Shown here in pieces: positions 2,956 through 41,203 of a stretch of DNA of 57,463 nucleotides. Below the pieces are notes generated by a model. The model had not been told where the DNA came from. It did no database searches and was given only the letters and a program-made list of their open reading frames with translations. The translations under genes and the position numbers were made by a program. Source of the DNA: Prorocentrum cordatum (Eukaryota); contig CAUYUJ010000022.1 of NCBI GenBank assembly GCA_963575745.1, positions 62,001 to 119,463 on the forward strand. Reading direction: 5' to 3'. The stretch's first letter is position 1, and each line of letters opens with the position of its first letter.

Positions 2956-5610
2956 ATGCGCGCCGTCGCCCTCAGCGCTGCCTGCCTCGGTGCCGGGTCG
3001 GCGCTCCTTCCTGGACCCGGCAGCAACCCCTACTGCTGGGCCGACGTCGACAGGGGACGCGGGGACGAGGTCGTGCGGATCGACGGCTTCCTCGCCCTGG
3101 AGCGGCAGGCGCGATGCTGCGGCTCCGCCCCAGGCTCGGCCACCGACCCGCCCGGCTGCTTCCCGCCGCCCGCCGCAGACTATCCGACGATCCTCAGGGC
3201 GTGTGCTGGCCGACTGTGTGTCACCCCGCTCGGCCTGTGCCGGCCATCGTCGCGCCACCTGCGTGGTGTCGAGGGGCCTCGATGGACCAGCACACGTTGG
3301 CGCCGACACGCGTCCTGGTGATCGTCGAACTATCTGGGCCGCGCGGAGTGCTGCGAGAGCCAGCGGCCCTGGGCAGACGCCCAGGCCGAGGCCGCGGCGC
3401 CGCCGCCCGACGTGCGGGGCGCCGAGCGCGCGTACCTGGCGTGGCCGGGGCGCGCCGTCGACCGCGAGGTGAGGCACTTCCGCCTCGTGGCGGGCGAGGC
3501 GGGGATGGTGCGGCCGCCGTAGCCCTGGCGACGAACTAGCAACGCACACACCCATGCCCATAGGGATGCCGGTGGGTGCGCGTTGTCGGACGGGGGTCCC
3601 CGCTCGAACGGGAGCCTCCCCCGCGGTGCGACAACCCGCACCCATACCTACAGCCAGTCCTCATCCGTCCGCCCCTCCTATGGGTATGGGTGTGTGGGTG
3701 TCTGTCGTTCGTTCGCCATCTGGGGACAAGAGCAGCGGCGCCAACCCAAGTTCTCGGAGCTCCGCGCGGATTTCTTGCATCGGCTCTGGGCCCCCCTGGT
3801 GGGACCGCCCCTGGCGCGCTCCGCGCGCCAGGGAGGGGCCACGCGGAGTTCTTGCATCGGCGCTGGGCGTCAGCGGCGCCTAGCCGCCGACCCGAGAACT
3901 CCGCGCGGAGCTCTGAGAGTGAGTTGATGACCTACAGTGTCGTTTTTAATGCATGTTCCGCGTGCGGATCATGTATTCAAACTGCAGGGATCTAGTATTA
4001 AAAACAACGATGGGTTCATGCATACACTTATTCATAACTCAATCATGTATAAACATCTTATATATATATATTAAAAGAATCCCATGTATTAGAAACTGCC
4101 CTGTACGCTGCTCCTTCTCACCCCCCAGCGTCACGACAAGCCCTTCGCGGTGGTGCTGCCGCCGTGGCAGGGCCTCGGGTGGAGCGCGCGCTTCTGGCGG
4201 GACCACTACGCCCGTGACTACGAGCCCGGGTCCTTTGCGGTCTTCCGGCGCGCCGTCGGCCCGCGCACCGTGGTGCTCGACGTCGGTGCGTGGATCGGCC
4301 CGACGGCGCTCTTCCTCGCCGGGCGCGCCCGGCACGTCGTCGCGCTGGAGCCGAGCAGCAGCGCCTTCGCCGAGCTGGCGTACAACTTCGCGCTCAGCCC
4401 GGCCCGGCTCGCGCGGGCGTTGCGGGCAGGGCTCGCGTCCCCCTCTCCACGGGGTCTTGGAGTTCCCGGCCCCTGCTTCTCCCGGAGGGCAGCGGCGCAG
4501 TGGGCATCGGCGATCGGTGTGGATGAGCATGTGGCCCCTGGAGGCCTTGGGACGTTGCCCGTGTCCACTGCGCCTCGGCCTTTGCGCCGCCCATTCCCTA
4601 GTAGATGTAAATCCTGCCCACGGTGCAGTGGATCTGGATGTAAGTCCTGCCCGCGGGCATCCCTCGTGGGCGCCGCCCTGGGGAGCGTGAACGGCCGCGT
4701 GCTGTTCAGCGACATGGGCGCGAGCGACGACCGGCCCCTCGCTCGGCACGGCAACCTGGGGCTGGTGGCTCGCGCCTCCGAGGTGCCGCAGATCTCCGTC
4801 GCGTCCCTCTGGGGACGGCGCAGCTGCCCCCACCCCCAGCCAGGGCCCCCTTGATCACCAGGTCGGGACGGGGGGTTCTGGCTCGGGGTGGGGGTGGGTT
4901 GTGCTGTCCTCACCCTCATCTCGGAGGAGAAGAACAGCATAGAGGTAGACTTTCGGAGTTCTGCGCGGATGTCTCGGATCCGCGCTTGACCCCCTTCTCC
5001 CTGGCGCGAGGAGCGCGCCAGGGGCAGCGCCTAGGGGCGGGAGGGCGCAGCTCCGATCCAAGAAATCCGCGCGGACCTCCGCAATTCAATGTTCGTGCAG
5101 TTGTTTCTCCTTCGATCGTCGCCGCGTGGCCGATTCTGAGGGACCTCGGCTTCGCCAAGGTCGACGTGGAGGGCGGGGAGGTGGACGTCGTGCCGGCACT
5201 GCTGCCCCTCCTCCAGTCGGCCCGGGCCACCGTGCTGGTGTCCCTCCACCCGCGCTTCGTCGGCCACGCCGCCGTGGTGGGCGTCGTCCAGGCGCTGCTG
5301 GCGACCTTCCCCGAAGAAGGGCAGGCGGCAGGAGCACGGGCTCGTGGAGCTCCGCGCGGACTTCCTGGAGCCATGCCGGGGCTTCCTCCCCGGCGCGCGG
5401 AGGGCGCGCCAGGGGCACCCAGGGCGCCCAGCGTCGATCCACGAAATCCGAGCGCAGCTCCTACGGCTCGTGTTCATGGCGTCGCTTCTGCTTCCGCTTC
5501 CCCAACTGCACGGAGACGGACCTCAGGACGCCGCTGTCGCCGGAGAGCGTCTCCGACGGCGACGCCCTCGGCGGGCTCGACGTGGTCTGCTTCTGGGGGA
5601 CGCTGCGAGC
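2956..5610 (+). CDS. FkbM-family (Methyltransf_21) SAM-dependent methyltransferase with N-terminal signal and Cys-rich region; multi-exon (approx. 2956-3190, 3320-3486, 4129-4417, 4658-4809, 5118-5312, 5504-~5610); 3' end uncertain
   Basis: FkbM motifs occur in order across GC3-rich segments: YEPGSFAVFRRAVGPRTVVLDVGAWIGPTALF, HVVALEP, FAELAYNFAL, LVGAALG, FAKVDVEGGE, VLVSLH. The N-terminus MRAVALSAACLGAGSA is hydrophobic. Exon 2 needs a 1-nt frame correction, so a pseudogene or sequencing error is possible. Confidence 0.85.
3545..3696. mobile_element. MITE with ~20-bp TIR CACACACCCATGCCCATAGG; second, interrupted copy at ~38648-38980
   Basis: Inverted termini are visible. The core GGGGGTCCCCGCTCGAACGGG...CGACAACCCGCACCCAT is shared with ~38700-38760. 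Confidence 0.8.
3752..3918. mobile_element. Palindromic foldback element family (core CCTGGCGCGCTCCGCGCGCCAGG); relatives at 4954-5081, 5313-5496, ~38215-38375, 40793-41006, ~51604-51730
   Basis: Arms TCTCGGAGCTCCGCGCGGA / TCCGCGCGGAGCTCTGAGA are near-reverse complements. The same central hairpin recurs at each locus. Confidence 0.85.
3935..4103. mobile_element. Tc1/mariner-type MITE (169 bp, TA target duplication)
   Basis: TA|CAGTGTCGTTTTTAATGCATG ... CATGTATTAGAAACTGCCCTG|TA with an AT-rich interior; second copy at 14979-15140. Confidence 0.8.
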
Positions 5611-5647
5611 AAAAGCCTGCACCGCCTGCCTCGTTCGCGCCTCCATT

Positions 5648-5860
5648 CTCCTCCTCCTCCTCCCTCCTCCCTCCTCCCTCCTCCTCCTCCTCCTCCTCCT
5701 CCTCCTCCTCCTCCTCCTCCTCCTCCTCTTCTTCCCTCCTTCCTCCTCGCTCCTTCCCCGTTTGAACCTCTCTCCTCCCTCGTGGCACCCCGCCCCTCTC
5801 AACACCTCCGTCCTCCTCTTTCGTGTGTTCCTCCTCTTCGTGTGCTTCGTGCTCCTCTAG
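5648..5860. repeat. (CCT)n microsatellite
   Basis: Directly visible. Similar CCT/AGG tracts lie at 7105-7392, 8180-8320, 14680-14755, 25970-26340, 39370-39522, 43598-43790, 50510-51080, 53155-53342 and 54420-54545. Confidence 0.95.
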
Positions 5861-5882
5861 TCTTCAACCTCTCACACTTGGG

Positions 5883-6106
5883 CGCCCGAGTTATCCGGGG
5901 TAACTCGGGTCCGGGGTAACTCGGGTTTGGATTCCCGAAAAAGGAACCCGAGTTAGCCCTGACCCGAGTTACCCCTGATGATTCGGGGCTCTGGACGCCC
6001 GAACTATCCGGGGTAAGTCGGGTCCGGGGTAAGTCGGGTTCGGATTCCCGAAAAACGAACCCGAGTTATCCCTGACCCGAGTTACCCCTGATGATTCGGG
6101 GCTCTG
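5883..6106. repeat. Two tandem 113-bp units, each internally palindromic
   Basis: Units start at 5883 and 5996. Each has two GGGGTAA(C/G)TCGGGT motifs followed by two near-reverse-complement ACCCGAGTTA(G/C/T)CCC motifs. Confidence 0.9.
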
Positions 6107-7502
6107 ACACACCCTTTCCGGTTCCTCCTGTGCAATCTTCCCTCTTTCCTCTTATACCCCATGCTTCTCCTCCCTCTTTCCTCCTGCGCCAGTTCATTCC
6201 TGCCTCCCGTCGCCCTCCTTTCCTTCATGTTCTCCTTCGTACGTGTTCCGTCTTCCTGTGCCTCCTGCCGTTGCTCCTGGAACTCCACGCCGCAGATGCG
6301 GTGCGCGTCCCGCCGCTCTGCTCTGAAGGTGTTCTGTGTGTCTGGCGCCAATGGAGCGGACTGCAGTCCATTCACAGCTCGAGGGACCCACGAAGCTAGT
6401 AAGGAGCTCGGGTCAGTCTTGATCAGAGTGTGCATGCTTCACGCTGGTGTGTCGTGCCGTGGTGTAGTACTACATGTTACGTTGTGCTTTGTCTTGCTGC
6501 TCTTCACCCTTACCATTCAGCTGTGGCATCGCAACGGCACCTGCTGTCGTCATATGAGCTTCCAGGGGCCTCCCGAAGCAAGCGGTGGCAAGCAGCGGTC
6601 AGGAGGTCGGGTGTCGCACGTCGCTCTGTTCCCACGGCTCCCACCATTCCCTCCCGTACACCCCTTCCTCGGGCCCTAGGCACGCTTGGTCGACGCGCGG
6701 GCAGCTTCGTGCACTTGCTGTTGCGCTCGACCTCAACCGTAGCGCTTTTAGTTTTCAGAGGGAAGGGAACTTCTGTCAGGGGAAGGCAATCAGTCTCCTG
6801 GAAGCCCGTGCGCGGGCTCCGGCTCCCAGCAGCAGGTCTACGGCGTTTCGGGCTATCTTCCTGCAGCTGTCGCAGGAGCCTCCTCAGCCGGTCCGGGTCT
6901 CATCATCCCCTTCTTCTACGTTGGGCGAACTCAAGGTGCTGACCTGTAGCGTTCGTGCGGTAAGATCCTCCTTGTCACACAAGTCAGGGCTGCTGCCAGT
7001 GCGGGCGCAAGAGGGGCCAGAATACGTATTAGAAGACGATGTGCCCAGAGAACTCGGAGTGACTAAGCAAGCAGCCGATGGAAGTAGAGGCACCATCCCC
7101 CCTTCTGCTGCTCCTCCTCGCTCCTCCTCCTCGTCGTCCTCCTCCTCCTCCTCCTCCTCCTCCTCCTCCTCCTCCTCCTCCTTCTCTCTCCTCTTCTCTC
7201 CCCCTCCTCCTCGTCCTCTTCCTCCTCCTCCTCATCGTCCTCCTCCTCCTCCTCTCTCCTCTCCTCCTCTCTCCTCCTTCTCCTCGTCCTCCTCCCCCTC
7301 CTCCCTCCTCCTCCTCCTCCTCCTCCTGCTCCTCCTCTCCTCCTCCTCCTCCTCCTCCTCCTCCTCCTCCTCCTCCTCCTCCTCCTCCTCCATTCCTTTT
7401 CCTTATGAATAACGTCTCCCTGTCGCACCCCAAGGCCAGTTGTTAGGTCGGGCCGCGCTTTCGCATGAGACTTCCTCACCATTTATGACCCCGAAGCTTC
7501 AA

Positions 7503-7855
7503 GCAAGACACCAGTTGCACGTATTGAGGGCGGGTGGTTTTCAACATGTGGTTCTCGCCTCAGCGCCGCGCACATTCGTTTGAAACAGTTGCAAGGATTT
7601 CACAGATTGAGGGCGGGCCGTTTTCAACCTATCGCTCTCGCTTAAGCCCGCTCACATTCGCTTTTGAAACATGCAAGAGCTTCACGGATTGAGGGCGGCT
7701 CCTTTTCAAAGTGTGGTTCTCGCCTTAGCGTCGCGCACATTCGTTTTAAACATTCGCAAGGGTTTCACGGATTGAGGGCGGTTGGTTTTCAAACTGTGGT
7801 TCTCGCCTTTGCGCCGCGCACATTCGTTTTAACACTTGGCAAGAGTTTCACGGAT
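7503..7855. repeat. Diverged tandem repeat, ~82-83 bp unit, ~4 copies
   Basis: ATTGAGGGCGG recurs at 7523, 7606, 7688 and 7771, each followed by TCTCGC and CACATTCG motifs. Confidence 0.9.
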
Positions 7856-8827
7856 CCCCATGGCCAGCGTGCTAAACATTGTGTTTGTTGGAAGGATTCA
7901 GGATTATGAGGGCGCAACAGTTATGGTAATTCGCTGTGCTGAAGTCTCAGGAACGGCGTTCTGGCACGGTTCAAGATCGCCAAGACGCAGCAGTCAGGTT
8001 GATCGGTGGCGATGGAATCCGGAGAACATTGTTTTGGCGTGTTTTAGGGTCTTCACACGGTTGTGTTCCAACGAGACAGTTCCATCATTGTAGATGAACC
8101 GTTGTGGGGGTCTATGAAGAGGGAGCTTACAAGGAGCGTGTACTCCAACATCGTCGATGACTCTTGGATTTTCACTGGTCCTCCTTCTCCTCCTCCTCCT
8201 CCTCCCTCCTCCTCATGCTCCTTTCCCTCCTCCTCCTCATCCTCCTCCTCCCTCCTCTATCCTCCTCCTCCTCCTTCTCATCCCTCCTCCCTCCTTCTCC
8301 CTCCTCCCTCCTCCCTCTCCGGACCCCCCCACGCTGTGAACAAGTCACGACGGGAGGCCGTTCGCGATCTTCGACCTCCGGGGGCCCTCTTCCCGGGCCC
8401 CCCAGGGGCCGTCAACAAAACGACGCAGGATGCAAAACCGGTCCCGGGAAAGGGGCCCAGACCTCTGGGGGTCGACGTCGCGACAAAAGTCACGGCGTCG
8501 GGGGTCAGGGCCTTTCCCGCCCGCCCGCGCGCGCGGGCTGGACCGCGAGCCCCGCCCGCTCCCGCCGCGCGCCTCCCCCCCGAGCTCGCGCGAGGAGGAG
8601 GAGGTCGGCAGGAGTCGCCCCCTTCCTCCGCCTCAGGGAGAGGCCCTCGCCCGGGATGGGGCTGGCCTCGACCTGCCCCGACATCGCCCGGCTCGGGCCC
8701 GCAACGCCTTGACCAGTTTCTGGGCGGAGGATGTTCGTCGATCTTCGGCGTCCAGATCGGAGGGGGGAGATGCGACACCAACACCACCAGGGGGCCCACC
8801 TCCAGCGAGGAGGTCCACGATGCCTCC

Positions 8828-8947
8828 CCGAGCTGGAGGCTGGGGATGTCTCGAGCGAGAGGGGGGGACCACACCACCAGGGAGACCCCCCCTTGCTCCT
8901 CGCATCGCCTCGCCCTGTTGGTGTTGGTGTCGCCTTTCCTTGCTCCT
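8828..8947 (+). repeat. Dispersed repeat, copy at ~42649-42770
   Basis: GAGGCTGGGGATGTCTCGAGCGAGAG...CACCACCAGGGA...GACCCCCCTTGC is shared by both loci. Confidence 0.85.
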
Positions 8948-9479
8948 ATCCAGAGGCCGTTTCTGCGCCCGCGGTCGCCACAATGACCCTGGGCGAAGAG
9001 AAGCACCCAGGGAGGGGTTCGGGACTTCTGGCGGCAAACCGTCTGACATTCGCGACATCGGAGTTCAGGGCACGCGCGGCATGCACATATGGCCCGCGGC
9101 CCCAGGTCTCGTTTGGTCTCACATTGTCCTGCTCCCCCTGCGTGCGTTGTGTCGTCTCTTCTCAGCGGCCAGGGCTTCATTTGTGGGTTCGGTTTCGGAA
9201 TCGCTCCTCGCACGAGGTTGTTGATCCACGCACGGATGGTGCTGCCTCTCCTCCACGCCCTCGCGCTACGTCTCCGTGTGGGAGGTCCAACGTCCGGCGG
9301 CGTGCCACCTCCCCGCCGTCCACGCCCGCATGGCTGCTGCTGCGTGCACGCACGCATGGGATCCCAAGCGATCCCGCCAGAGAGCCTGGCCGCGCGCGCA
9401 CCGGCTCCGACCTCCCTCCGCTTCGACGTTGCGCGAGGGGCCGTGACCGTCAAAACGTATGTGTGTGTGTGCGTTTCGG

Positions 9480-9950
9480 AACAGAGCTTTCTGTGTCCGA
9501 GAAGGCCACGAGTGTGCCCTGCACAGGCCTCTGGAGCACAACAAGCACAGGTTGAGACCACTAGTATAGCAGACTGCTTAAATCAGGAACAGGCGGCATC
9601 CACGAATGACAAGCAAGAGTGCACAGGAATAAGGCTACCGTGATACGCAATCGGGTTTTTCAGCGATTTTCCTGCGGAGCACCTTGCGAACGTTCGGTGT
9701 GGCTTGGACCGTAGCCCCCGCGCCATTCGCAAGGCAAATCTCGCCGCACTCGCAGTTCGAGCTAACGTGCAACAGCTTGCAGATGCACTGATTGTATCGC
9801 GGCGTTGACGGGCACTCGCACAAACGTGAAGTCTGCCCTGAATGAGCTTGGACGCTAGGACAATTCCTGAGCATACAACAACACCAAGTCCTCATACACT
9901 TCCTAGACAAAGGAGGTGCGCACTCGAATCTATCACATTACGGATGTGCA
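9480..9950 (+). repeat. Diverged ~470-bp direct duplication, partner at ~12695-13170
   Basis: Collinear shared blocks: CGTGATACGCAATCG, AGCCCCCGCGCCATTCGCAAG, CAGTTCGAGCTAACGTGCAA, GCGTTGACGGGCACTCGCACAAACGT and TCACATTACGGATGTGCA. Confidence 0.85.
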
Positions 9951-11220
9951 TTGGAAGAACCTTATAGAGGGTGAGATGGCATATTTCAAGAATCATTGTG
10001 GGCAGGTTAATGGGCCAACATTGAAAAACAAAGCTAAGCTACAGAAATCAGGATGCAGTCGTGGTCCACCAGCTAAATTGGGTACCCCGATTGCGTGTGG
10101 TAGGGAGCCAGGACAAGCTCAAGAACCACATTTTCGCGATCAGGGATCAAGGCCCCACTGTGGCCACATAGATACAGCTGGCTGCGATCTGGCAGCGCAA
10201 AACGGACACATAGAGAAAAGAAAAGAGAAACACATGTTCTTACTCATGTATATATATATACACATAGTTATTTATATATATATATATATATATATATTTC
10301 TACATATATGTATATATACACGGACCGCCAGGACCGCCGCGCTACGGCTACCCTCCAGGCGATTGCTGTGTACGCGTTGCACAAGACACACGACAACGCG
10401 ATCATGCATGGTCCCCTGGGCGCCGACGGGCAATCGGCATTCCGCGGTTTTATTAGCGACGCGGCTCGGGGTCACCCGAAAGCCCGGCACCTCGTCCAAA
10501 TGGTTGTGGAAAGACCCAGGCCCGCAAGCTAGAACATCATCTCGACATTATTTAGGTAGTGTAGTTGTTTGTGCTTTCTATCTTCTCCTTTCGGTCGTAA
10601 TTCGGCGCGCCAGCTCGGCCGCACGTTCGCTTGTCCCTCGCCCCTCCCTTCTTCCCTTCCTCCTCCTCCTCCTCCTCCTCCTCTCCTTCCCTCTTTTTCT
10701 CCTGCCTGAGTCCAGGGCCATTGTGGATTTCTGGTGGTCCTCTGACTGGGATTGCTTTCTTTACTGCTCGCGCACCCGTGGAACGCTCGACGCGGTAGGA
10801 ACTTGGGCCGATTTTCTCTCGACGGTGTCAGTCAGGCCGTGAACGGGCCATTCTCCCATTCGTCTCGTTGTGGATTTATACATCTGGTCAGTTGGACCAT
10901 TAGGGATCCGTAAATCTTTCGTAGGTGCTCGTTCCCCTTCTCCTCCTCGTCCTCTTCCCCTTTTCCTCCCTCGTTCCAGGTGCTGTTTGACTTCTGGCAT
11001 GGGCCAGACATGGAAGCAACCAATTTGCGTGGCCACCGTGTTTTGGCTATCACGGAATTCACTCTTCCTCTTCGTCCTCTCTTTTTGTCTCCCTCCTTGT
11101 GCTGGCTTCGTCTCACAGCTTTCGCCGCATTGCGATTGGTGTCGCAATGCGTGCTGCTTGGTGTGATGTGAGGTTTGGTGATGGCTGTGTGCTGGAAAAG
11201 ACACACATACATATACATAT

Positions 11221-11251
<31 letters not shown>

Positions 11252-13224: not shown

Positions 13225-13304
13225 TGTGTGTGAAAGTGCGTGTGCGTGTGAGTAAGTATATATATGTGTGTGTGTGTGTGCGTGTGTGTGTGTGTGTGCG
13301 TGTG

Positions 13305-13351
<47 letters not shown>

Positions 13352-14978: not shown

Positions 14979-15140
14979 CAGTGCCGTTTTTAATACATGT
15001 TCCGCGTGCGGATCATGTCGTAAAAATGCAGGGATTCAGTACTAAGAACAAGGAGGAATTCATGCATATATTCATTCATAGATTAATCATGCATTAAACA
15101 CCCTATAATTTAAAACATCTTATTCTTAAAAACTGCCCTG
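14979..15140. mobile_element. Second copy of the Tc1/mariner-type MITE
   Basis: CAGTGCCGTTTTTAATACATGTTCCGCGTGCGGATCATGT ... AAAAACTGCCCTG|TA aligns with 3935-4103. Confidence 0.8.
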
Positions 15141-16169
15141 TACAATCGAGATGATGAAATAAGGGCCGCTTTGGGTTCGGAGGGGGCTCGCTGTTTCCCA
15201 AGGGCCTTCTGCGGTTCTTCCTCCAGCCCTCCGCTTGCACCCAGCTGGGAGCAAAGGACGAGGCTTCGTTCCTCACTGAGCGTTCCTGGTGTCGTTTCAG
15301 CAGCCCGACCGTACCCGCTGCGGGCTGCGGCGTCTGGCGCGGGCGGGCCGCTGCCGCGCGGCGACCCCGGACTTCCAACGCATCGAAAAAGCCACCCTGA
15401 GATCCAGGCTTTGCGCATTTTGTCGCACCGTGCGCTTTCGCCCAGCGTCGTGCCCCGGAACCATCACAGGGCGGTCTGGCTCAAGAAATGCAGCAAATAT
15501 GAAGATCAGGCTCCAGACGCGATTCTTCGCAATGTTTCAGTTTTTCCGCAGCGACGGATCTTAGAGCCGGGCGGAGGGCCTCGGTGACCGTGAAAATCAG
15601 GAGAGGAAAAAACACACAGACACAATGAATCGTTGACTCCCCAGAAAAAGTATTGGAAAATATGGGAAGTGAGGGGGAAGACAATAACCCAGAAAAGATT
15701 GGAAAAGATGGGGATTCTTTTTATTTGTGTGTATTTATTTGTGTGTCCCAGGGCCCCTTCAGAAAAGCAAGACGAGAAGCCAGTCCCAGGGGGGAGTCGA
15801 GTCCTCCAGGTTCCCCGCATTGGCAAACTTAAGACGTCGGATCTCTGGGCTGGGCTCTGCGGCGAGGGCGGCGGTGGCAACCACAAGGGACCTGCGGGCC
15901 CCGACATCCCCAGGCATTCGACGATATGGTCGAGTGTTGGGCCGAAGTTTAGCCAGGCCAATGGTCCACGTGTTGCCCCAGTCGCTGTGGAGGCCTTGGG
16001 GGCCTCTTGGGCGCCTTTTGGAAGCATCTTGGGGCCTGTAGGGGCCTCTGCTGAGGGGCCATCCTGGCCTTCCGAGGCAGTCTTGGGGTCCGTCTGGCCG
16101 TCTCCGCACCGATTTCCCGCTGGGAGGGCTCTCCGTGTCACTGCGGTTTCACCCCCCCGACCTCCGATC

Positions 16170-20315: not shown

Positions 20316-20415
20316 NNNNNNNNNNNNNNNNNNNNNNNNNNNNNNNNNNNNNNNNNNNNNNNNNNNNNNNNNNNNNNNNNNNNNNNNNNNNNNNNNNNNN
20401 NNNNNNNNNNNNNNN
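20316..20415. other. Scaffold gap (100 N)
   Basis: Run of N bases. Confidence 1.
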
Positions 20416-28129: not shown

Positions 28130-31100
28130 TCGCTATAAGTTGGGCTCCGCGGTCACTTATGATGGCTTCGACTGTCGTCACTACCAGCTCCTTTGCGATG
28201 AAGGTCTCTTGGCCCTCGGCATTATTTTTGAGTTGATGGAGTTGGTTGGAGTTCTTCCTCGCCAGATCTCTGCGGTGCTCATTGCCCTCCTCGTCAAACC
28301 CACGGGCGAATTCAGGCCGATAGGGGCGTTTTGCTCTTGGTACAGAGTATGGGCCGCCTCGGGCGGCCCTATGCTCTGTCCTGGGAGCAGCGGCACCCCC
28401 GTCGGTACTGGGCTGCTGGGGCTTTCCGAGGAGATGCTGACGTTGTTTGGCGTCAAACAGTCCGAGCCGAGGCAGGCATAGCTCGCAGGGAATGCAGTGC
28501 CAGCATTTTTTCAACAATATGCTTCAGCACTATGAAACAATAGGTCTTGATAGGCTGGAAGAAAGGTGCTACAAGCACGGATGCCCTGAAACTCTCACGC
28601 GTGTCTCGCTCTATGCCTATCGTTGCAGCATATTCATTTCTATAGCTGGCCTGCTTGACGGCCCATTTTTTGTTGTGAACGGTGTGATTGCAGGGTGCAG
28701 CCTTGCGACCACTCACATTCGGAGATTCGCCATGGATGCGTTTGACGCGCTGCCCACGCATGTGAACAGTGAGTTTGGTGTGTATACTGATGACACGGGG
28801 GTTTTTCACATTGGTTCTCATAAGCAGGTTGTTCAGCACATCGTGTCCATGCCGCGTGTCTTACACCAGGTGATCACAGAAGAGATGCAGTGCCAACTCT
28901 CGCTCGACAAAGTTTGCACGGCGGCTTCCGGCAAGAGGTTTGCCAAGGATATCTCTGTCAATCTAGGTGGGGTGGGAGGGAAGGTGTTGGATTCCACTTT
29001 CAATCTAGGAGTTGACTTCTGCGTCGGTGGGTCATCTCGAGTCTCGGGCAAGAGTTCCAAGATGAAATCTAGGTGTGCGCTCATGTGTAGAAAGGCAAGA
29101 CGTCTCAGAAAGCAGACTGAGCATGTTGGCAGGGCGGCGCTCAAAAAAATCTGTACTGCGGGCCCCTCGCTGGAGGGGCCTACGGGGCCGTGATTCTGGG
29201 CATGGCGGACCAACAGCTCCTGCTTATGCGGCGCCAGGCGTTCTCCACCGTCCGCCACTTTCCAAGAGTAGGTCCGTCACTGCAGCCAGCATCCTCTCGG
29301 ATGACCCTTGCTGGAGAGCTGCCTGCGCTCCTATAGTGCGTTGGAGCAAAGAGATTTGGATCACCCACACGCGAGTTTTTGCCGGCTCTCTGTCTTTTGC
29401 CTTGTTGCCTGCTGCTTGGCATATTGCGTTTTCGCAAGAGCGTGTGACTTGGCCCACTGTCAAGGGTCCTCTCTCCTCCCTCCGCCTCTCCCTCCTCAGG
29501 CTTGGATGGAGAATGCAAGATTTTATGACCATGCTCAATGACCGAGGTTCTACCATTCCCCTTGGCCCCACGTCCCCCAAGTTGCTTGAAGCTCTGTGTA
29601 GGGACGCTTACATGATAGGTCTGGAAACTGACTTGGGACGCAAGTGGGGGAGTGGGAAAAAGGATGTGTCTGGACATTCCTCGTTCGGCCTGTGCTTCCA
29701 AGAAGTTTACGCCTGCCCAGCGAGGCTGGATTCGCGCTTGCACGAGCTGCGCTATCTGGACAGCTGACCGTGCGACCAGCTGCGGCTATGTGGTGGACCC
29801 AGTATGCCTTCGATGCCGACAGGAACCCGACTCCATCCTCCACAGATTGTGGACATGCAGTGACCAAGAAGTTGCCGAGAAGAGGGCTCAGTTGGTCCCC
29901 GCTTCGGTGGTAGAGGCCACCAGCGAGGTCATCTGCCTATACTCTCGAGGAGCTCTCGCTCATCCCGCCGACTACCTGCCTAGGCCTGCCCTGGAAAGAA
30001 TCAACGCCCTGCAGTACATGTGGCATCGCACTGAGCTGGACAGCCCCGAGGGTCCCAGGGCCGCGGTCAACGGAGAAATGTGGGGACACCTGTCTCGTGC
30101 CACACCCATCCTGTTCGAGAGCTTTCTCGTGCCGCTTGGGCTGTCACCATGAATTCGGATGACGGGGAATACCTTGGAGAGGTGCGTGGCCCTGTGCGGG
30201 CCCATCTCCCGCAGACGCCACAGGCTGCAAAGTTTTCGGCCCGTTGCGTTATCTCTCAGTTCTTGGTGTTCCCCTCTACGATTTGTTCGGATTGCGCGAA
30301 CATGGTGCACCAGTGTCAGTTGCTTGTGCCTGATAGGTACACAGGTAAAACGAGCCTACCCGGGTATGATCCTCCAGGCCAGCACGTTTGAGCAGCAGCT
30401 TATTAGAGAAGTGATCAAAGTGAAAGCCCACTTGGATGCAAATGCTGAAGGCATCTCAGAGGGCGAGCGGTTTTTGAGGAAGGGCAACGCGGACGCGGAT
30501 GCAGGAGTCCACCCTTCGTTGGCAGGTGATTTGAAAGACGTCTCTGGGCTAGTCGAAGCTGCTCGAGCGCACTGCATCCTCGCTGCTAATATGTTGCCAC
30601 GTTGGCCGAAGCTGCCTTTAGATGTGCCATACTCTCCACATTCGTCGGCGCCCAGCGGTTCTTCGGCTCCGCAGTTGCCGCGTAGGTGGGAGACATGGTC
30701 GGGGATCTGGAGGTGCGCAGTGCGCCTCAGAGGCAGGCGCGCAGGGAGCATGCCACCTCCAGGCCACTGTGCCAACATGCCAAAGTTGCATGCTTCTCGG
30801 CAGCAAGATTTGGGCCACCGCGCGGTGGCGCTCCCATGCTCGGATGGGTCAGTCCTTTTCACTTGTTTGCGCTGCAAGTGTCACTTTTCGAGAGCCTCCG
30901 TTCAAGGCTTAGCCGAGCGCTGCACGACGCCTCCGACGCGTGCAGTCTTCTACGGGTGGGGGCACCTTTGCAGAGGCAAGCACCCCCAGTGTGCCTTCAG
31001 GAAGCGTGGAGTCACGGTCGATACCGACGACTGCATGGCTTGTTTCGACACTGTGGCTGTCGGAGAAGAGCTGCAGCAGCTGCAGCACGACAATGGAGAC

Positions 31101-33196: not shown

Positions 33197-34289
33197 TCAG
33201 TCCAGGGAGCCTCCTCCTCTTCCTTGAAACATCTTGTTCAACACAAACATTCCTATCCTGTCACTTCTTTTCCTGGGAGTCGCCAATACTTCTGAGACCC
33301 TCTTCGTGCCTTCACATGTAATCCCCCCTTTATTGGAGACCAGAACCCCCAGTTTAATGTTCTGTCGTAGTATCGTTAGTAGGTTCATCATCTTCATATT
33401 CGTACCTGGGGTCGGGGCAGGTGTCTGCCTTTGTCGGAGAAGATCCAGCCATTATCCTCGGGTAGAAGACAGTCGACCTGATCCTGCCGCTCTACGGGCT
33501 CTCTGGGGGCTGCACTGCTCACGGTGAGGAGCCCGAGGCCGTTGTCTGCTGGCGGAGTTTCTCTTTGTTCTCTTCTATCTTGTCCTGGTGCTCTTTGATG
33601 GTCTTCTCTGCCTCCTGCTCCGTCGGCACCACTATCACTTCGACTTCCACGATTGGCGTTCTCTCGCGATTCTTCTTTATCTTGTAATCGTCGATCCACA
33701 ACTCAGGGCGCCTGTGCGTCCAACCGTACGGGATCCACCTCATCTCGTCGTCTGCGTCCCACCACGGCAGCAGCGAGGTCTCCTTCTGCCCGCTGTCAGT
33801 CGACTTCGTGTTGTGGCTCTTCGCCGACTCGTCGGCCTGCATGCATTCGTAGCTCTTGTCTCTCGGTGACTGCTCGTCGCTGCCCGCTGGCCGCGCCGTG
33901 AGCAAGCCCTTCACCTTCAGGAGCCCCTCGATGCACGCGCTGACGCTGCTCATCTGGTCGCTCAGGTAGCTCATATCCTCCTCATCTGGGAGCTTTTGCT
34001 GGTCGGTAGTGCACTCCATGGCCTTGCACCTGCTTGGGCTGAGCATCAGCTTGTACTTGTGGTCCATCCATCAGCTTCAGCAGCCCTGTATCGGCGTCTG
34101 TCGTTGTAGAGGCCAGGACTGCTCCCGTCTTATTGATGTTCATCTCCGCACTCTTCAGCACGTACTGTACGCCTCCGATCTTGTCGCTGATGTTCCTGAC
34201 CTGACCTACGCACCCCATGTTGCGCGCTGCTCTCTGTGAGTACTGCTCGATACTGCTTCTGCACTGCGCTTGAGCCCAAAGCAACTACG
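33197..34289 (-). pseudogene. Decayed intronless coding unit (possible LINE ORF1 plus start of APE-ORF2, or a retrocopy) preceded by a spliced-leader-like motif
   Basis: ATG at 34218 (MGCVGQVRNISDKIGG..). A 4-bp duplication shifts the frame into ORF 33519..34067, which has a coiled-coil-like end. An overlapping short ORF ..IKLGVLVSNKGG..DRIGMFVL weakly resembles an APE N-terminus. Confidence 0.5.
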
Positions 34290-35934
34290 CGAACCCACAG
34301 TAGTAGCCTGTCAGAGTCCCGGGACCTTCTAGGCTGTAATTCCCTTCTCCCCTCCATCGTAACAATACCCGTAGTCGTGATGATGTGACGTGTTATCTCC
34401 CAGTCTGTGTGGTTTTTCTTTGTCGGTGCTGGCGTAGTCACTGTCGAAGAGGAGGAGGAGGAGGAGAAGGAGGAGGAGCGGGAGTTCGAGGAGGAGCTGG
34501 AGGAGAGGGAGGACGAAGATGGCGGCGAGGAGGATCCCCCTTTGAACACTGTGTTTTTTTCTGCTTCCCTTCTTGGTCTAAAGTGTCGGCCCTCGTGCCG
34601 AAGATGGCTCAATCTGCACGTTGCCACCTGTTTTGTCTTACGAGCGCTACGATCCCAGCCAATCCAAGTCTGCCTAACGTCAAGAGAGTTCGATGGGAAG
34701 CAGCTGGAGGAGCAGGTTGACGAGGATGACTCCCCCCCGAATCAGAATCCGCGGCTCGTCCAGGGCCCCTCAGCCGTGCCCCTGGGCTTATGCGACTCCC
34801 TTGCCCAATTCCGTCTCTCTCTCTCTCTCTCTCGCTCTCTCTCCCTCTCTCTCTCTCGTTCCTTCTCCCGTTTCCGTTCCCTCACCCTTTATAGGTTCGA
34901 TCGTCGCGCTTACGCTCGAGGCCTCGCGCTTTGGGGTACGTCTGTCGCCTAAGTGGTGTTCCTAGCGTCAGGCGTGGCCACCTCTCTCGAGCAGAGCCCT
35001 CCGATACCGCGTGTGCGCAGCAACGCCTCAGCATTGAACCAGGCAGGCAGAAGCTTCGCATCCACATTGACGCGCTGGCAGGAATGGAGTGGCAGCAGCC
35101 AAATGCTGTTACCCGACGGCTGGCGGCACTGCGAGCACGGAGAGGCGGCCAAACGCCGTACTTCGAGATGACACCGACCGATGTGTGCGTGTGTGTGTGT
35201 GTGTGTGTGCTAAAACAGTGCCCCTCTCTCGCTCCCCCTCTCTCTCTGCCTGCTTCAGCTCGGCCCTCGCTCATCCCTATCGCCATCCATCGATGTCTTA
35301 CCTTCTCCGCCTTCTCTTTCTCATCAAGGCTGTTCCACGCTCGGCAAAATTAGATCGGCTGGGACTGTAGTGTTCGCAAGGCGAAACAAGAGCTGCAACG
35401 CGCACATTAAACCGTGTTAGGCACGGTGGCCTACAAATTTGACCAGGGTGGGCGCAGCGGGAAAAAGGGCCAGGCAATGTGAGAGAAGCCTCCTCCTCCT
35501 CATTTCTCCTTATCGTACCTCCTCCCTCCTACACCGCCTCACGTTTCTTCCTCCGCCCTCCCTCCTTGACTCCCTCCTCCCCGCCCCTCCTCATTCTCCT
35601 CCATCTCCACAGGGCTACAGCTCCTCGTCCTCCCCGACTGAAGCCAGCCTGACAATGACGACGACAGTGACAATGACGAGCGCGACGACCTTGACCGACG
35701 ACTTTGGCGACGACGGCAACTGCGGCCACGACGACGACGACGACTACGACGATTTTCCCGTAGATCCGACGTCAAGAACAATTGCAACATCGCGAAGCAT
35801 CACCACTGGAGCCCTAGACGTCATCTTTCTGCGGCATTTCTCTAGGCGGATCGATCTCTGCAGTTCGCGTGGCCTGAATGCGGGAAAAAACGCCCGGCCT
35901 GAAGGAATGCCACGCTTGGATCTCAAGGTTTGGC

Positions 35935-36381
35935 AACGACAACGACGACGACTACGACGACGACAACGACCATGATGAAGACGATGACGACGACCACGAC
36001 GACGAGGACGACGACGTGGATGACGACGACGACGACGACGACGACAACGACGACGACGCAGACGACGACGACCACGGCGACGACCACGACGACGCTGACG
36101 ACGACGACGACGATGGCGGCGACGACGACGACGACGACGATGGTGGCGGCGATGGCGACGACGACGGCGACGACGACGACCTCCGAGGTGCCCGTGCGCG
36201 GCGCCTCCACGCCGCGCTGGTGCAGCTCCCCCACGGCGGCGGCGAGGCCGGGCAGCCGCTCGGTGGGCTCGTCGCTGGAGGCCCCGCTGCCGCCGCCAAA
36301 GACTTGCGCCGCGCCATTGCCGCCGTCGCCGCCACCGCCGTGGTCGTCGTCGTCGTCGTCGTGGTCGTGGCCGTGGTCGTG

Positions 36382-36413
<32 letters not shown>

Positions 36414-36415
36414 GG
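35935..36415. repeat. (GAC)n and (GTC)n arms flanking a ~160-bp GC-rich core
   Basis: Complementary trinucleotide tracts are visible. The same layout occurs at 26790-27160, and a further (GTC)n tract lies at 37345-37725. Confidence 0.9.
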
Positions 36416-37563
36416 ATCAGAGGAGGAATCGGTCTGGATACCGCTGCCGCCGGCAGCCCTCGAGGTCCAGAGCACGCTGCGCGTTGGGTTTGGACTGCCG
36501 TGTGTCGTGCTGTCCTGCCCTGCTCCCTGATCGGAGGAGCAGAGGGCACCGATACCGCTGACCCTTCCCTCGTCTTCGCTTTTTGGGGCCTCCTGTGAGG
36601 CTTTCGTCGCCACCGCTGGATTCTCTTCGTACTTCTGGTCAGAGTGCACTCCAGGAGACGTCTGGGGAGCGGTGGCACCGGTCAGAGTGAGGGGGGCGAA
36701 CTGCCATTGTCCCCTGGTGCGTGGCAGAAGTGGCGTTCCGTCCGGCGGATTCTGCCTGTTGTGTTTGCTGTTGCGTTGTCGTCGTTCTCGAGCCCGACGC
36801 GCCCGCGACAGACCCGCGACCCACCCCGTACCCGCCACCTCACTCTTACCCGCAATTGCGGGGTGCTGCGTGTTCTTTGTCCCCCCAGTGGCTTGGCCTC
36901 GCTCGGGCGTGTGCAGCAAAAACGCAAGCGCGAAACCGACAACGGCTTCGGTAGCAAATCATGGGATCCTGGTATACCCTCCCAATACCGTCTTTAGCGT
37001 CGACGCGCGTCGACTAGCGAGTGGGAGTCGATGGGGTAGTGCCGACTTGGCGTCGGCTAGCGTCGGTTAGCGTCGATTTTGCGTCGATTTGGCGTCGCTT
37101 AGCATCGACTAGCGTCGATTCGTGAGAGCCGGCAGGATGGTATAGAAGGCTCCCATGAGTTAGGGATGGACGTCCGAGCGATGGCAGGGTGGAGGCTTGA
37201 GCCTCGAGGGTGGAGGTCTGCAGGGGCCCTCTGCCTGCTCTCTCGGGGCTGGCCGCGGGGGGCCCCGGGAGGCCAGCGGAGGGCCCCTGGGGAGGCCCCG
37301 AGGGCTCGGCGGAATCTGCCAGAGACCTCCAGAGGCCGTCGGGGGCCGTCGTGGGCCGTCGTCGTCGTCGTCGTCGCCGTGGTCGTCGTCGTGGTCGTCG
37401 TCATCGTCGTCGTCGTCGTCGTCGTCGCCGTGGTCGTCGTCGTGGTCGTCGTCGTGGTCGTCGTCGTCGTCGTCGTCGCCGTGGTCGTCGTCGCAGCCGT
37501 CGCGGTCGTGGTAGTCGCGGTCGTCGGTGTCAGAGGAGGGAAGCGGGGTGATGGTGGTGGTCG

Positions 37564-37600
<37 letters not shown>

Positions 37601-37611
37601 GGGCCGTCGTT

Positions 37612-37643
<32 letters not shown>

Positions 37644-37644
37644 G

Positions 37645-37682
<38 letters not shown>

Positions 37683-37846
37683 GGTCGTCGTCGTCGTCGT
37701 GGGCGTCGTGGTCGCCGTCGTCGGCGAAGCAGTCCAAGAGCAGTCCTGCCTGGCCGCTGTGCCTCCAGAGCCTGCCGCGCACGCGGCGCGCGCCAGGCGC
37801 CCCGGGCGGTTTGGCAGGCCCCCCCGTGCGTGGCCAAGGGGCCATC

Positions 37847-40800
37847 ATGAGGGCGGCAGTCGTGGCCGCGGCCGCGGGCGTCGCCGCGCTCGGGAAGGCG
37901 GCCGTGCCCGTGGAGGCGGCCGACCCGGGCGCGCCCTGGCGCAGGCTGATCGGCGAGGCCTCGGCGGTGCACCCGTCGACGTCGACGTCGACGGCCACTG
38001 AGGGAGAGAGAACACTGCCTATACGGTAGGTTCGCGTCGTGTCGACCGGCGGCGGCCCCGCCAGCGGCGTTCCACGCGGAACGCCGCGGGCGACCCAGCA
38101 TCGGTCGATGTGGACAGATTTGGACGTGTCGGAAACGGCCGCTCGTTCACGGTGGAACGCTCCCCGCGGTGTCAGAGACGCCAGCGCCGAAGTCGGCACG
38201 ACACGAACCCGACGCAAACGCGGGCCGTCCGAGGCGTCCTTGGGTCGGCGCCGGGGCCCCCCCCCCCGTGGAGGCGTCTCCCGCGCCGCCCCCTGGCGCG
38301 CTCCGCGCGCCCCGGTCAAGGGGGCCGAGCGCCGGTCCACGAGCCTCGCGCGGGGCTCCTCAAGTTTGTGCTCCTGCGCGTTGGTTTCCCTGGCAGGCCA
38401 CGCGGGCCGCGACGACGTCGTCGACGCGCACGGCCACGACGACGGCGGCCGAGTGCCAGCCGGCGCGGCACCTCATGGACACGTTCACGAGGGAGGCGTT
38501 CCCGGCCAGCCTCGGGAGCTGCGCCCTCGTAGGCTCGGGCGGGGCCCTGAAGGGCAGGGGCATCGGCGGCGAGATCAACGCGCACGACACCGTGATCTGG
38601 AAGGGCGAAACAACGCGCAGACCCAACCTTTCCTGACAAGCGAGCAGCACGCACTCGCACCCATAGTGTGGACGGCGGGGGCTGTGGGTGCGTGCTGTCA
38701 GATGGGGGTCCCCGCTCGAACGGGCGCCTCCCCTGGGGCCCGACAACCCGCACCCATGCTCATAGCCAGGCCGCCTCCCTCCGACCCACCTACGTATGGG
38801 TATGGTTCAGTCGGGCGTGTCCCTCTACAGGAGGAAAAATCAAAAATAGTTAAACAAAAAAAAGTCATTAGACGATTTTTCTAATATCTTTGGAAATTTG
38901 TTGTTTCCTTTCATTTTTCGTCCACAACCCGCCTGTAGGAGGACATGCCCGACCTAAGGGTATGGGTCTGGGTGTGTGTGTGTGGTCCACTTCCGTCATT
39001 TGCCGAGATCCGGGCGGATGTCTTGGGTCGGCTCTGGGCCCCCCTTCCCGCACTCCCAGCGGCGCACCTCCCGGCTTCCGCCGCGTGCGCGCGTTTGGCG
39101 CGCCTCAGGAGAGGCTCATGCTGTTCCAACCTACGTTAGCCTTGATCACCAAAACGAAATTCGCGCACCAGGAAAGTACCGAAACTGGATGGTTGTCACG
39201 CGTCGGTTCCTGGGAGGCGATATTCGTTCGACACTGTTTCGATACTTCTCCCAGTGCTCAAATCTATTTCTGGGATCACGCCCTCAAGTGCGATGGGAGC
39301 AGCATAAGGAGAGGCATGCACCGAGGCGGGTGCAGCGCCGGCCCCTGAACCAGAGGAGCAAAAGGTCAAGCAGGAGGAGGAGGAGGGAGGAGGAGGAGGA
39401 CGAGGAGGAGGAGGAGGAGGAGGAGGAGGAAGAGGGGGAGGAGGAGGAGGAGGAGGAGGAGGAGGAGGAGGAGGAGGAGGAGGAGGAGGAGGAGCAGGAG
39501 GAGGATGAGGAGGAGCAGGAGGATGCGACGTTGGCTGGCTCCCAGGCTGCCCAGGCTTCCAGGATCTCCAGGGTCGGAGGAGGGAAGAGGCACCCGGTGC
39601 ACCTCTGCGATATTTGTTTGACTATTTGGGGGGTATTTTTTGTTCTTCGTCGAAAATCCCCCTGTAGGGGGACAGGCCCGACTTAAGGAGAGGCCCGAGA
39701 GGGGTAGCTCAGAGGAGGAAAAGGTACCCATACCTCTACCCTTCGCCCGTTTTCCCCGATTCGGGCCTCCTGGGGAGCCCTCGTCGCCACCGCTGGATTC
39801 GCCTCGAGATCCTGGTTCGAACGCACCCCAGGAGAGGTCCGGGGAGTGGCGGTATCGGTACCTCTTGATCTCCCCAGTAGCGGCATCGGCATCTCTCAGC
39901 GTGCCCAGCCCATCAGGGGTCCCCAAGAAGGCTCCGCAGGGGCTCCAGAAGCGAGGGCTGCCAGGCATCTCTGCATGATCCTGGAACGCATCCCGAGCCA
40001 GCCCCATCATGACATCAGCCTCGTCCTCCAGAGAAGTCGTGCGCGGCTCTGCGGAAGGGTAGGTCTACGAGTTCGTTTGTGCTTCTGCGGTCCGCGTGAA
40101 CCGCGTCCCTTCGGAGCCCTACTACTCCGACCTCGGCAGCAAGACCAACGTGTTCTACTCCAACTCTGCCACAGACACGTACCCGTCGGGGGAGCTCGGC
40201 GTTTGGATCACGAAGATCAGGGAGGGCAATTCCATCGGAGAGAAGATGTATTGCCCGTTCCAGCGCAACGCCTCCTCAGGCAACTGTCCTTTCGAGCACT
40301 TGGTTGTGGCACGGTCGACGAAGTACGGAAGCGACAGGAGGGGATCCAGCAGAAATGGAGGGGAGGGAAGGGAAGGGAAGGACAGGTTCATTGAAGGAAC
40401 AAGAGATGGGTATGGACCCTCAGGATTGGCGATAAGATCAACATGCCGTTCAGGATCCCAGATTACTTGCAACCTCCTTTCGATGTATCGCATCCTTCGT
40501 TGGCGTTGGAGACATTCTACTGGAATTCCGCCCCGATGCAGGGCTACTACACCTCCGGCGGCCTGAAGGCGTTCTTCACGGTCGCTCCGCTGTGCGACTC
40601 GGTCACGCTCTACGGCTTCGCCGGCAGCGGGAACATCGATAACCACACCATCGACACCGTTCACAGCTTCGACACCGAGCACCAGTGGCTCCACCGCATC
40701 GCTGTGGGCGACGCGCGCGACTCCGACTTCAGTGCCGTCGGCGCCAAGGACTGGCTGTTCCAGAACGGCCTCGACGACTCCGTCATGGAGGATCGACGAA

Positions 40801-41203
40801 CAGAAGCTGCATCACATCAGCACAGACTGTCGGATCTCCGCGTTGACTTCGTGGAGCGACGCTGCCCCCCCCCCCCCCCCTGGCGCGCTCCGCGCGCCAG
40901 GGGAGGCGCTAGAGGCGCCGCCAGGGAGGGGGGGCAGCGCCGATCCAACGAATTCCGCGCAGACCTCTGACAGCACAGTTTACGTGTGCACCCCTGTCTC
41001 TTCTGTTGGAGGAGCTGCCGACGGTCATCAAGGGCCTGCAGGACCGCCTGAGGTGCCTCGGCGAGCGGGGCAAGATCCGCATCGACGGATGGACCTCGCC
41101 CGCCAGCGAGGAGCTTCAGGGGCTGATGGCCGTCGCGGAGAGCCGCGCAGATGCCGGAGCTCGGCGGCGAGCAAATCTTGAGCAGGGTCCAGCCAGAAGA
41201 TAA
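37847..41203 (+). CDS. Glycosyltransferase family 29 (sialyltransferase-like); exons approx. 37847-37993, 38397-38597, 40093-~40308, ~40400/40454-40790, 41012-41203
   Basis: Sialylmotif L is split over two exons (SCALVGSGGALKGRGIGGEINAHDTVI|RVNRVPSEPYYSDLGSKT). Motif S (TSGGLKAFFTVAPLCDSVTLYGF) and motif VS (HSFDTE) follow. There is a hydrophobic N-terminus and a Thr/Ser-rich stem. GC-AG|G intron 37994-38396 and GA-AG|G intron 40791-41011 preserve frame. Confidence 0.92.
38806..38957. mobile_element. 152-bp MITE with TIR TT(A/C)(A/G)GTCGGGC.TGTCC..CTACAGG and 8-bp TSD GGGTATGG
   Basis: Inverted termini and an exact TSD at 38798-38805 and 38958-38965. Further termini of this family occur at ~39655-39686, ~51488-51519, ~54098-54129, 55633 and 57279. 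Confidence 0.85.

Follow-up and report, generated by a model that had tools for sequence, protein, structure and literature searches.

Probable MITE-like hairpin introns, with and without AG ends, in two genes of a probable dinoflagellate genome

We analysed a 57,463-nt stretch of contig CAUYUJ010000022.1 (positions 62,001 to 119,463; hereafter the window), in which two genes on the forward strand, one for an FkbM-type methyltransferase (gene 1) and one for a GT29 sialyltransferase (gene 2), are interrupted by inserts that resemble small transposons. Contigs of the transcript type, from which every insert of gene 1 is absent, join its exons at boundaries that hold no AG in any permitted register. 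We consider it probable that small, non-autonomous elements resembling miniature inverted-repeat transposable elements (MITEs) form introns in both genes, and that those without an AG are precisely removed, in what would be the same phenomenon as that described in Amoebophrya. From the types of intron, the gene density and the composition, the host appears to be a GC-rich dinoflagellate-type organism with a large genome. Ten gaps were analysed, five in gene 1 (I1 to I5) and five in gene 2 (Ia, Ib, Ic, Id and If).

Gene 1 extends from 2736 to 5610, and its coding sequence opens with the ATG at 2956; the transcript-like contigs that cover it begin at 2736-2747 and end at 5610. A run search listed 18 sequencing runs, 11 of which contain part of the interval 2900-5700 and none of which contains half of its words. 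In eight runs, which belong to two studies, 0.34-0.41 of the words sampled from this interval are present, approximately its exonic share. Four runs were aligned to 2700-5640, and thus to gene 1 only: X5, a polyA RNA library on record; X1 and X8, whose kind is uncertain; and X12, which consists of raw RNA reads. The contigs of X1, X5 and X8 together span three studies. Record 12 of X8 shows zero differences from the window copy along its 1366 nt, of which 209 nt are 5' leader. It is composed of the segments 2747-3178, 3329-3521, 4131-4419, 4660-4809, 5119-5305 and 5497-5610, and has no other letters apart from a single one between the fourth and the fifth segment. The junctions given by the contigs are therefore 3178|3329, 3521|4131, 4419|4660, 4809|(one letter)|5119 and 5305|5497, and the coding exons are 2956-3178, 3329-3521, 4131-4419, 4660-4809, the one letter, 5119-5305 and 5497 to at least 5610, an arrangement in agreement with the reading frame, which is open once they are joined. 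All five junctions are present in both X1 (records 1 and 2) and X8, and the fourth and fifth are also supported by X5 (depth 5.8, sides of 27 and 30). The depth of the spliced contigs is 10.4-11.9 in X1 and X8 and 3.3-3.9 in X5, and the gene 1 contigs overrun neither end of the examined stretch, as would be expected of transcripts.

Unspliced pieces that cross intron-exon borders without a mismatch were also seen, at 3187-3337 (X8, depth 2), 4611-4689 (X5, depth 2.6) and 5346-5518 (X1, depth 2.85). Their occurrence at low depth in X1, X5 and X8 means that an insert-bearing copy was present in the same material, and they fit precursor RNA of the window copy itself. Across the three studies the depth of the joined form exceeds that of the unspliced form by a factor of 1.4 to 6. 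When every permitted register was examined, none of the five gene 1 gaps could be read as G[T/C/A]..AG, and no AT..AC (U12-type) register exists in any of the ten gaps. Minus-strand and U12 readings of the gene 1 gaps were rejected as well, since no register fits even when the reverse complements are included. Rather than ending in AG throughout, as would be the case if non-AG introns were confined to unexpressed copies, the expressed junctions of gene 1 are non-AG in five cases out of five. An initial annotation, made from the letters of the window, had anticipated the removal of about 3190-3320, 4418-4657, 4810-5117 and 5313-5503, and the RNA-type contigs agree, giving 3179-3328, 4420-4659, 4810-5118 (with one odd letter) and 5306-5496 (equivalent within the repeat). 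Its GT-AG intron at 3487-4128 was misplaced; the contigs give 3522-4130, with ends GC..CG.

Joining the exons restores an open frame in gene 1, and the unspliced RNA could not encode the enzyme, as there is a stop inside I1 and the frame is shifted in I4 and I5. The product matches FkbM homologues, also by tblastn, and PF05050 is found in all three matches checked and in most relatives overall. The nearest relatives are FkbM proteins with 45-58% identity, several of them encoded on prokaryotic-looking contigs of 14-214 kb, and no close eukaryotic relative was found in searches of protein collections. These searches did not return a protein of the host organism for gene 1 or gene 2. Gene 1 may be a lateral acquisition, in which case all of its introns may be later or recent gains.

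The individual introns of gene 1 share an anatomy to varying degrees. I1 (3179-3328, 150 nt) is bounded by two copies of the 6-nt ACTATC (3179-3184 and 3329-3334), within which lies a stem formed by 3185-3223 and 3285-3327; none of its seven registers offers an AG. I3 (4420-4659, 240 nt), with ends TT..CA or TG..AT, has a stem of 4420-4462 and 4611-4656, and its 7-nt repeat CGCGGGC (4412-4418 and 4652-4658) is displaced by 1 nt from the RNA junction. The base after the two copies of this repeat differs (G or A), and because the RNA has the G of the left copy, it is the downstream copy that is removed; no other gap is informative on this point. I5 (5306-5496, 191 nt) is a copy of a MITE with a palindromic core, bounded by the 7-nt CTTCCCC (5306-5312 and 5497-5503), and an AG is absent from all eight of its registers.

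I4 (4810-5118) presents a more complex picture: 309 nt are skipped, and in X1, X5 and X8 alike a single unmatched letter stands in their place that is neither T4810 nor G5118. We propose that I4 consists of two adjacent hairpin introns around a 1-nt exon, A4918. The first, I4-X (4810-4917), comprises a near-perfect 102-nt hairpin (stem 4811-4911, -83 kcal/mol) followed by ACCCTC, and its 5-nt repeat CCCTC occurs at 4805-4809 and 4913-4917. The second, I4-Y (4919-5118), is mostly a palindromic-core MITE with a stem at 4921-5115 and a repeat of 2 nt. Separate removal of the two would leave a 1-nt exon and so account for the odd letter, which on this view should be A, as proposed from the split and not read from the contigs. 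The weakness that the initial annotation saw in the architecture of 4810-5117 holds for I4 as a single unit, the ends of which pair no better than many shuffled sequences (65 of 300 equal or better), and disappears when I4 is divided, as neither I4-X nor I4-Y is matched by any of 300 shuffles.

I2 (3522-4130, 609 nt, GC..CG) departs from this anatomy in having a boundary repeat of 0 nt. Three parts make it composite: a hairpin element of about 200 nt at 3526-3719, at 3752-3918 a palindromic-core MITE that is nested inside, and at 3935-4106 a repeat rich in AT. The hairpin element starts 4 nt after the 5' junction of I2, and the fold of 3522-3750 has a z of -6.0. An in-frame, canonical-looking pair flanks I2, a GTGAGG donor at 3469 and a pyrimidine tract with CAG at 4126-4128, and is unused in RNA; the real 3' junction is 2 nt past the AG of that CAG. 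A GT-AG intron at either 3469-4128 or 3487-4128 is accordingly ruled out, because the contigs join 3521 to 4131.

For comparison with chance, we took the boundary repeat as the strict junction ambiguity over all permitted registers. A repeat of at least 5 nt (5-7 nt) bounds six of the ten gaps (I1, I5, Ia, Ic, Id and If), or seven if the displaced repeat of I3 is counted, whereas a random junction in the window reaches this length with p=0.0167, so that six or more in ten has a probability of 4e-9. Terminal pairing was measured between the first and the last 50 nt and set against 300 dinucleotide shuffles, the count being that of shuffles that equalled or beat the real sequence. It stood above the shuffles in I1 (0), I3 (0), I5 (3) and Ib (5), as it did in the two parts of I4, and not in I2 (85), Ia (71), Ic (108), Id (32) or If (46). 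The minimum free energy of the whole intron, compared with 40 shuffles, beat all 40 in I1, I3, I4, I5, Ia and Id, and did not exceed them in Ic or in any of four exon controls; the corresponding z values were -4.3 for I1, -2.5 for I3, -4.0 for I5, -8.4 for Id and -0.3 for Ic. The predicted fold pairs both ends together in I1, I3, I5, Ia and Id, and hairpins are found equally in the canonical introns Ia and Id. In the register indicated by I3, the stem of most non-AG units begins 0-2 nt inside the 5' junction and comes to within 3-9 nt of the 3' junction. The initial annotation had described most introns of both genes as transposon-like, and this largely stands, with repeats in six of ten gaps, hairpins in most and a MITE in five; I2, having neither repeat nor terminal pairing, does not conform. 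We also observed that a downstream exon starting with TC is permitted in at least one register for all six non-AG gaps (I1 to I5 and Ib), unambiguously so for I2 and I4, a pattern recognised post hoc.

A transposon origin is clearest for the palindromic-core MITE family (core 3811-3831), which a pattern search found five times in the window where 0.01 matches were expected; I5 is a further copy, more diverged, that brings the total to six. One copy is nested in I2, one accounts for most of I4-Y, and I5 and Id each consist entirely of a copy; another, in reverse orientation, forms the 3' half of Ia, and the last, on the minus strand, occupies 51,550-51,780 in a stretch with no recognised gene. 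Target duplications were sought for the copy nested in I2 and for that at 51.6 kb, and were not definable. One MITE family thus yields introns of both kinds, canonical (Ia and Id) and non-AG (I5 and I4-Y), and the statement of the initial annotation that the two types stand side by side can be extended to say that they share this family. In the RNA contigs the MITE is hundreds to thousands of times deeper than gene 1. In the raw RNA reads of X12 it is covered on both strands at 3690-3990 and 4878-5174 (up to about 73 and 110 deep, respectively). As the host gene has zero depth in X12, the family must be abundantly transcribed, or retained, genome-wide. Other repeats also recur: 3572-3689 in I2 and 38684-38805 in Ib are 81% identical, and another repeat of I2 is found again at 14979-15143. 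I1, I3, I4-X and Ic have no second copy within the 57-kb window. For I1, I3 and I4-X we infer a derivation from transposons from their arms and repeat alone; Ic has a boundary repeat and no arms.

Gene 2 (37847-43560, ATG at 37847) was identified as a GT29 sialyltransferase by Pfam, and its structure was derived from homologues and from the joined translation. It has seven transcript-derived homologues with 55-83% identity. Its junctions were set by tblastn alignments of four relatives (P0004, P0005, P0006 and P0009) together with the reading frame, which gave exons at 37847-37993, 38397-38597, 40093-40337, 40424-40790, 41012-41156 and 43420 to about 43560, the last of which runs into a (CTC)n tract and encodes a C-terminal membrane anchor, as in the relatives. 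In a blastp comparison with P0004, 274 of 341 residues of the joined translation (80%) were identical, and gaps fell inside exons only, none being at Ib, Ic, Id or If. The end that the initial annotation had given to this gene, 41203, lies inside If, and Ic, If and the exon from 43420 had been missed.

Four of the five gene 2 introns can be read with an AG|G[A/C] register, against a chance of 2.3% per junction (P=1.4e-6). Ia (37994-38396, 403 nt, GC-AG|G), the junction of which was set from the frame alone, has the 6-nt repeat GGCCAC, and the reverse-oriented MITE that forms its 3' half is the source of its pyrimidine tract and CAG. Ic (40338-40423, 86 nt, GA-AG|G) is free of hairpins and has the 5-nt repeat CAGGA. 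Id (40791-41011, 221 nt) has its GA-AG|G inside the 7-nt TGGAGGA and is a palindromic-core MITE copy oriented like I5. If (approximately 41157-43419, about 2263 nt, GA-AG|G) has the 5-nt repeat GGAGC and holds several repeats found elsewhere in the window. Three introns had earlier been assigned the dinoflagellate type; those at 37994-38396 (GC-AG|G) and 40791-41011 (GA-AG|G) are retained here, and the third was the misplaced 3487-4128. A GT-AG intron at 40323-40423 was considered for Ic and rejected, as it would remove four or five residues conserved in the aligned homologues.

The remaining intron, Ib (38598-40092, 1495 nt), is the predicted non-AG member of gene 2. Its three registers (TC..GG, CT..GT and TG..TC) would all lack AG, its repeat is 2 nt, its stem is formed by 38599-38645 and 40045-40086, and its interior holds nested repeats and a (GAG)n tract. 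Because the relatives pass directly from ...TVI, at the end of exon 2, to RVN..., at 40093, Ib is placed at 38598-40092, in agreement with the earlier proposal of an intron without AG here, for which homologues and frame provide the support. An in-frame alternative, GT (38592) to AG (40070-40071), was rejected: it would swap two residues at the end of motif L that are conserved in P0004, P0005, P0006 and P0009, and would add seven that none of them has.

A metagenome scan for relatives of gene 2 returned one transcript-like contig of 1008 nt, L001, that has no 5' end. At about 390-420 it contains a single frame change between the catalytic part and the C-terminal anchor, which may reflect an error of a single base or be genuine. 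Both genes are directly followed, after the last recognised exon, by (CCT)n/(CTC)n tracts (5611-5760 and 43560-43790), and (GGA)n/(CCT)n tracts of this kind occur in at least ten places in the window. In X1 as in X8, the contigs of gene 1 end at 5610, 33 nt short of the tract, which may mark another junction.

We suggest that the elements arrived with terminal inverted repeats and generated a target-site-like duplication of 5-7 (9) nt, often with further copies nested inside. Where the duplicated target holds AG|G[A/C], the insertion would become an ordinary introner-type intron of dinoflagellates (Ia, Ic, Id and If); without that motif, the insert and one copy of the repeat would still be exactly removed from the mature RNA (all gene 1 introns and Ib). 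Removal at boundaries that have no common dinucleotide implies a process that does not read GT/AG. The terminal stem most likely brings the two repeat copies together, and a tolerant spliceosome, or some other cutting-and-joining activity, would then resolve the base of the stem. The age signs in the inserts (nested copies, imperfect arms, one mismatch in the repeat of I3 and the loss of the repeat at I2), together with zero exon differences over 1366 nt, lead us to argue that the window copy is the functional, transcribed one, and that removal probably takes place on its RNA. A further step, for which we have only tentative and rather doubtful expectations, would be, in a free-living organism with a large, GC-rich genome, a structure-guided, sequence-blind second excision route beside the G[T/C/A]-AG|G spliceosome, removing a MITE hairpin together with the downstream repeat copy. 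The initial annotation had gone in this direction by suggesting that hairpin pairing may define the splice sites. What we find is a correlation, one that fails at I2 and in which hairpins are equally present in the canonical Ia and Id. Nor would such a route be undescribed, as it had thought possible: non-AG introns of this kind have been described in Amoebophrya (in the available sections of PMC7789003), and euglenids use a pairing-based code (in those of PMC12501133).

Several observations weigh against the removal of these MITE-like introns from RNA as we read it. X1 and X8 are not certified RNA, and X5, the certified run, supports two of the five junctions. The raw reads of X12 cover repeats only, with zero depth on the exons of gene 1, and are uninformative either way. 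The joined forms were seen in contigs of RNA or of uncertain kind, and an insert-free genomic copy may exist. Junctions flanked by repeats across stable hairpins are the classic signature of template switching by reverse transcriptase. I2, with terminal pairing no better than that of shuffles and no repeat, means that definition of the site by a hairpin cannot be general. In gene 2 the junctions, including the putative non-AG one of Ib, were placed by reading frame and homologues, and a comparison of gene 2 with L001 over 130 codons gave a ratio of nonsynonymous to synonymous substitution rates of 0.58, which indicates no clear constraint.

One alternative is that the contigs are transcripts of an insert-free paralogue or allele, the window copy being a transposon-riddled duplicate and the junctions empty insertion sites. 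We regard this as unlikely, though it has a real basis: genes in dinoflagellates are commonly multi-copy, and X1 and X8 are of uncertain kind. Moreover, an insert that is taken away with one of its target duplications necessarily leaves the empty site behind, in agreement with I1, I3, I5 and I4-X, and tandem gene arrays are described for dinoflagellates in the available part of PMC5032977. However, such a paralogue would have to be free of differences along 1366 nt, although the inserts appear old. At I2 there is no target duplication from which to restore an empty site, and at the fourth junction a 309-nt insert would have had to take the place of a single base. The runs in question also contain pieces that bear inserts, and the same MITE family forms working AG|G introns in gene 2.

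An artefact of reverse transcription, in which the enzyme jumped between direct repeats across the hairpins while copying an unspliced and non-functional transcript, seems to us very improbable. The setting is a textbook one for template switching, with repeats of 5-7 nt flanking stems of -50 to -83 kcal/mol, and the evidence is entirely based on cDNA. Yet the gene 1 contigs also lack I2, whose 609 nt have neither a terminal stem nor any boundary repeat, and the repeat of I4-Y is just 2 nt long; the junctions recur in three studies, where the joined form is the deeper one, and the stop and frameshifts noted above would leave an unspliced RNA unable to encode the enzyme. It is scarcely credible, finally, that these are ordinary GT/GC/GA-AG spliceosomal introns whose ends were assigned a few bases away from the true ones. 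G[C/A]-AG|G does describe Ia, Ic, Id and If, and canonical-looking pairs lie near I2 and Ib; but the contig junctions of gene 1 are exact and allow no canonical register, RNA does not show I2 in its canonical alternative, and the alternative for Ib disrupts an end of motif L conserved in four aligned homologues.

The reading that we prefer, MITE-derived introns removed with or without AG, has its closest parallel in Amoebophrya. According to the available sections of Farhat et al. (2021, PMC7789003), the introns of strains A25 and A120 are confirmed by RNA-seq and in more than 60% of cases non-GT-AG; their inverted repeats measure 8-20 nt and their direct repeats 3-5 nt. As in that account, the junctions seen here have no common dinucleotide (RNA-supported in five of five gene 1 gaps, and predicted by homology for Ib). 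Inverted repeats pair the intron ends in I1, I3, I4-X, I4-Y, I5 and Ib, though not in I2, and direct repeats overlap the boundaries (6 nt in I1, 7 in I5, 7 offset by 1 in I3, 5 in I4-X, 2 in I4-Y and Ib, and 0 in I2). MITE-like elements without a transposase, and canonical introns of the same architecture beside them, are further features in common. Relative to the same sections, the repeats are longer here (5-9 nt as against 3-5 nt), recognised coding sequence makes up 4.2% as against 32-41%, and exon GC is 69-76% as against 52-56%. GT-AG is found in none of our ten gaps and G[C/A]-AG|G is common, whereas the figures there are 30-34% for GT-AG and less than 3% for GC-AG and GA-AG. In these respects the window does not resemble a compact Amoebophrya genome.

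The canonical introns of gene 2 belong to a different tradition. For introner-like elements and repeated intron boundaries of dinoflagellates, Roy et al. (10.1101/2020.10.14.339549, in the portion available) and Mendez et al. (2015, PMC5032977, likewise) describe boundary repeats of 2-11 nt, a high frequency of GA in young introns, and target duplications, 4, 5 or 8 nt long, by which AG|GH sites are supplied. Ia, Ic, Id and If match these introner-like introns exactly in having AG|GH supplied by the duplication. Unlike those descriptions, in the parts to which we refer, where AGG is always at the boundary, I1 to I5 and the predicted Ib are AG-free in all registers.

Outside dinoflagellates, the available sections of Nomura et al. 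(2025, PMC12501133) describe nonconventional introns of euglenids that use a pairing-based code, N3-CDG ... CH'G-N5-6 followed by a purine. The introns described here resemble them in arbitrary dinucleotides, in pairing near the ends that draws the exons together, in boundary repeats resembling target-site duplications, in coexistence with conventional introns, and in having a shorter spacer at the 5' end than at the 3' end. The full euglenid signature, as given there, is present in none of seven units; I3 has the triplets and the spacing, but its downstream exon starts with T. Several 3' ends here are also pyrimidine-rich, whereas euglenid nonconventional introns are said in the available text of PMC11282704 to have no polypyrimidine tract. 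The same text summarises the non-canonical, MITE-derived introns of Fritillaria borealis as being removed by an adapted U2 spliceosome. The MITE origin and the non-GT/AG ends are shared with our introns, and a tolerant spliceosome of this type is a possible model for the machinery here; in contrast to the mostly AG-A(N) patterns attributed to Fritillaria in the sections of PMC7789003 seen, we find no shared boundary motif.

In the literature that we searched, supplements aside, no report was found of non-AG hairpin introns in dinoflagellates other than Amoebophrya, and a 2024 review lists 'other boundaries' for Amoebophrya alone (PMC11453091). The phenomenon and the idea of a hairpin are thus already in print, and what is new, within that same literature, is their apparent occurrence in a probable dinoflagellate outside Amoebophrya. 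If the junctions were made at the level of RNA, boundary-blind introns of the Amoebophrya type would also work in a gene-poor, GC-rich genome that has introns of the core dinoflagellate type. In Prorocentrum cordatum, whose GC of 59.7% is matched by the 59.2% of the window, which by itself is no proof of origin, introner elements have been reported and mappers accept GT, GC and GA donors only (PMC10666404, in the part available). With gene models restricted to these donors, introns of the gene 1 type would go uncalled, and mappers confined to GT/GC/GA-AG would mis-model or lose genes such as gene 1, in which five of five gaps are non-AG. A MITE family whose introns have AG|G or lack AG according to the duplicated target alone would be a natural experiment on how new introns become spliceable. 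Were the sequence-blind route to be true as well, nearly any exonic MITE insertion would be harmless at once, inserts one base apart could leave a 1-nt exon such as A4918, and one class of intron would be systematically missed in the gene models of dinoflagellates.

The window as a whole has a GC of 59.2% and one gap of 100 N (20316-20415), with many microsatellites and very few recognisable genes. The latter are spaced at about 30 kb, and the exons of gene 1 and gene 2 make up the 4.2% of recognised coding sequence. An Rfam scan of the whole window gave zero matches. A 15-nt 3' part of the dinoflagellate spliced leader has no match in the window at up to three mismatches, against 1.5 expected by chance. 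A 7-mer identical to the end of this leader lies at 2732-2738, just 5' of the starts of the transcript-like contigs of gene 1, and is within chance expectation, which is several per window. A Pfam scan of the 156 stop-to-stop open reading frames of the window matched GT29 and one weak reverse transcriptase only. The latter, RVT_1 at 28441-29190 on the forward strand (E=3e-4, under the Pfam cut-off), is probably a decayed retroelement.

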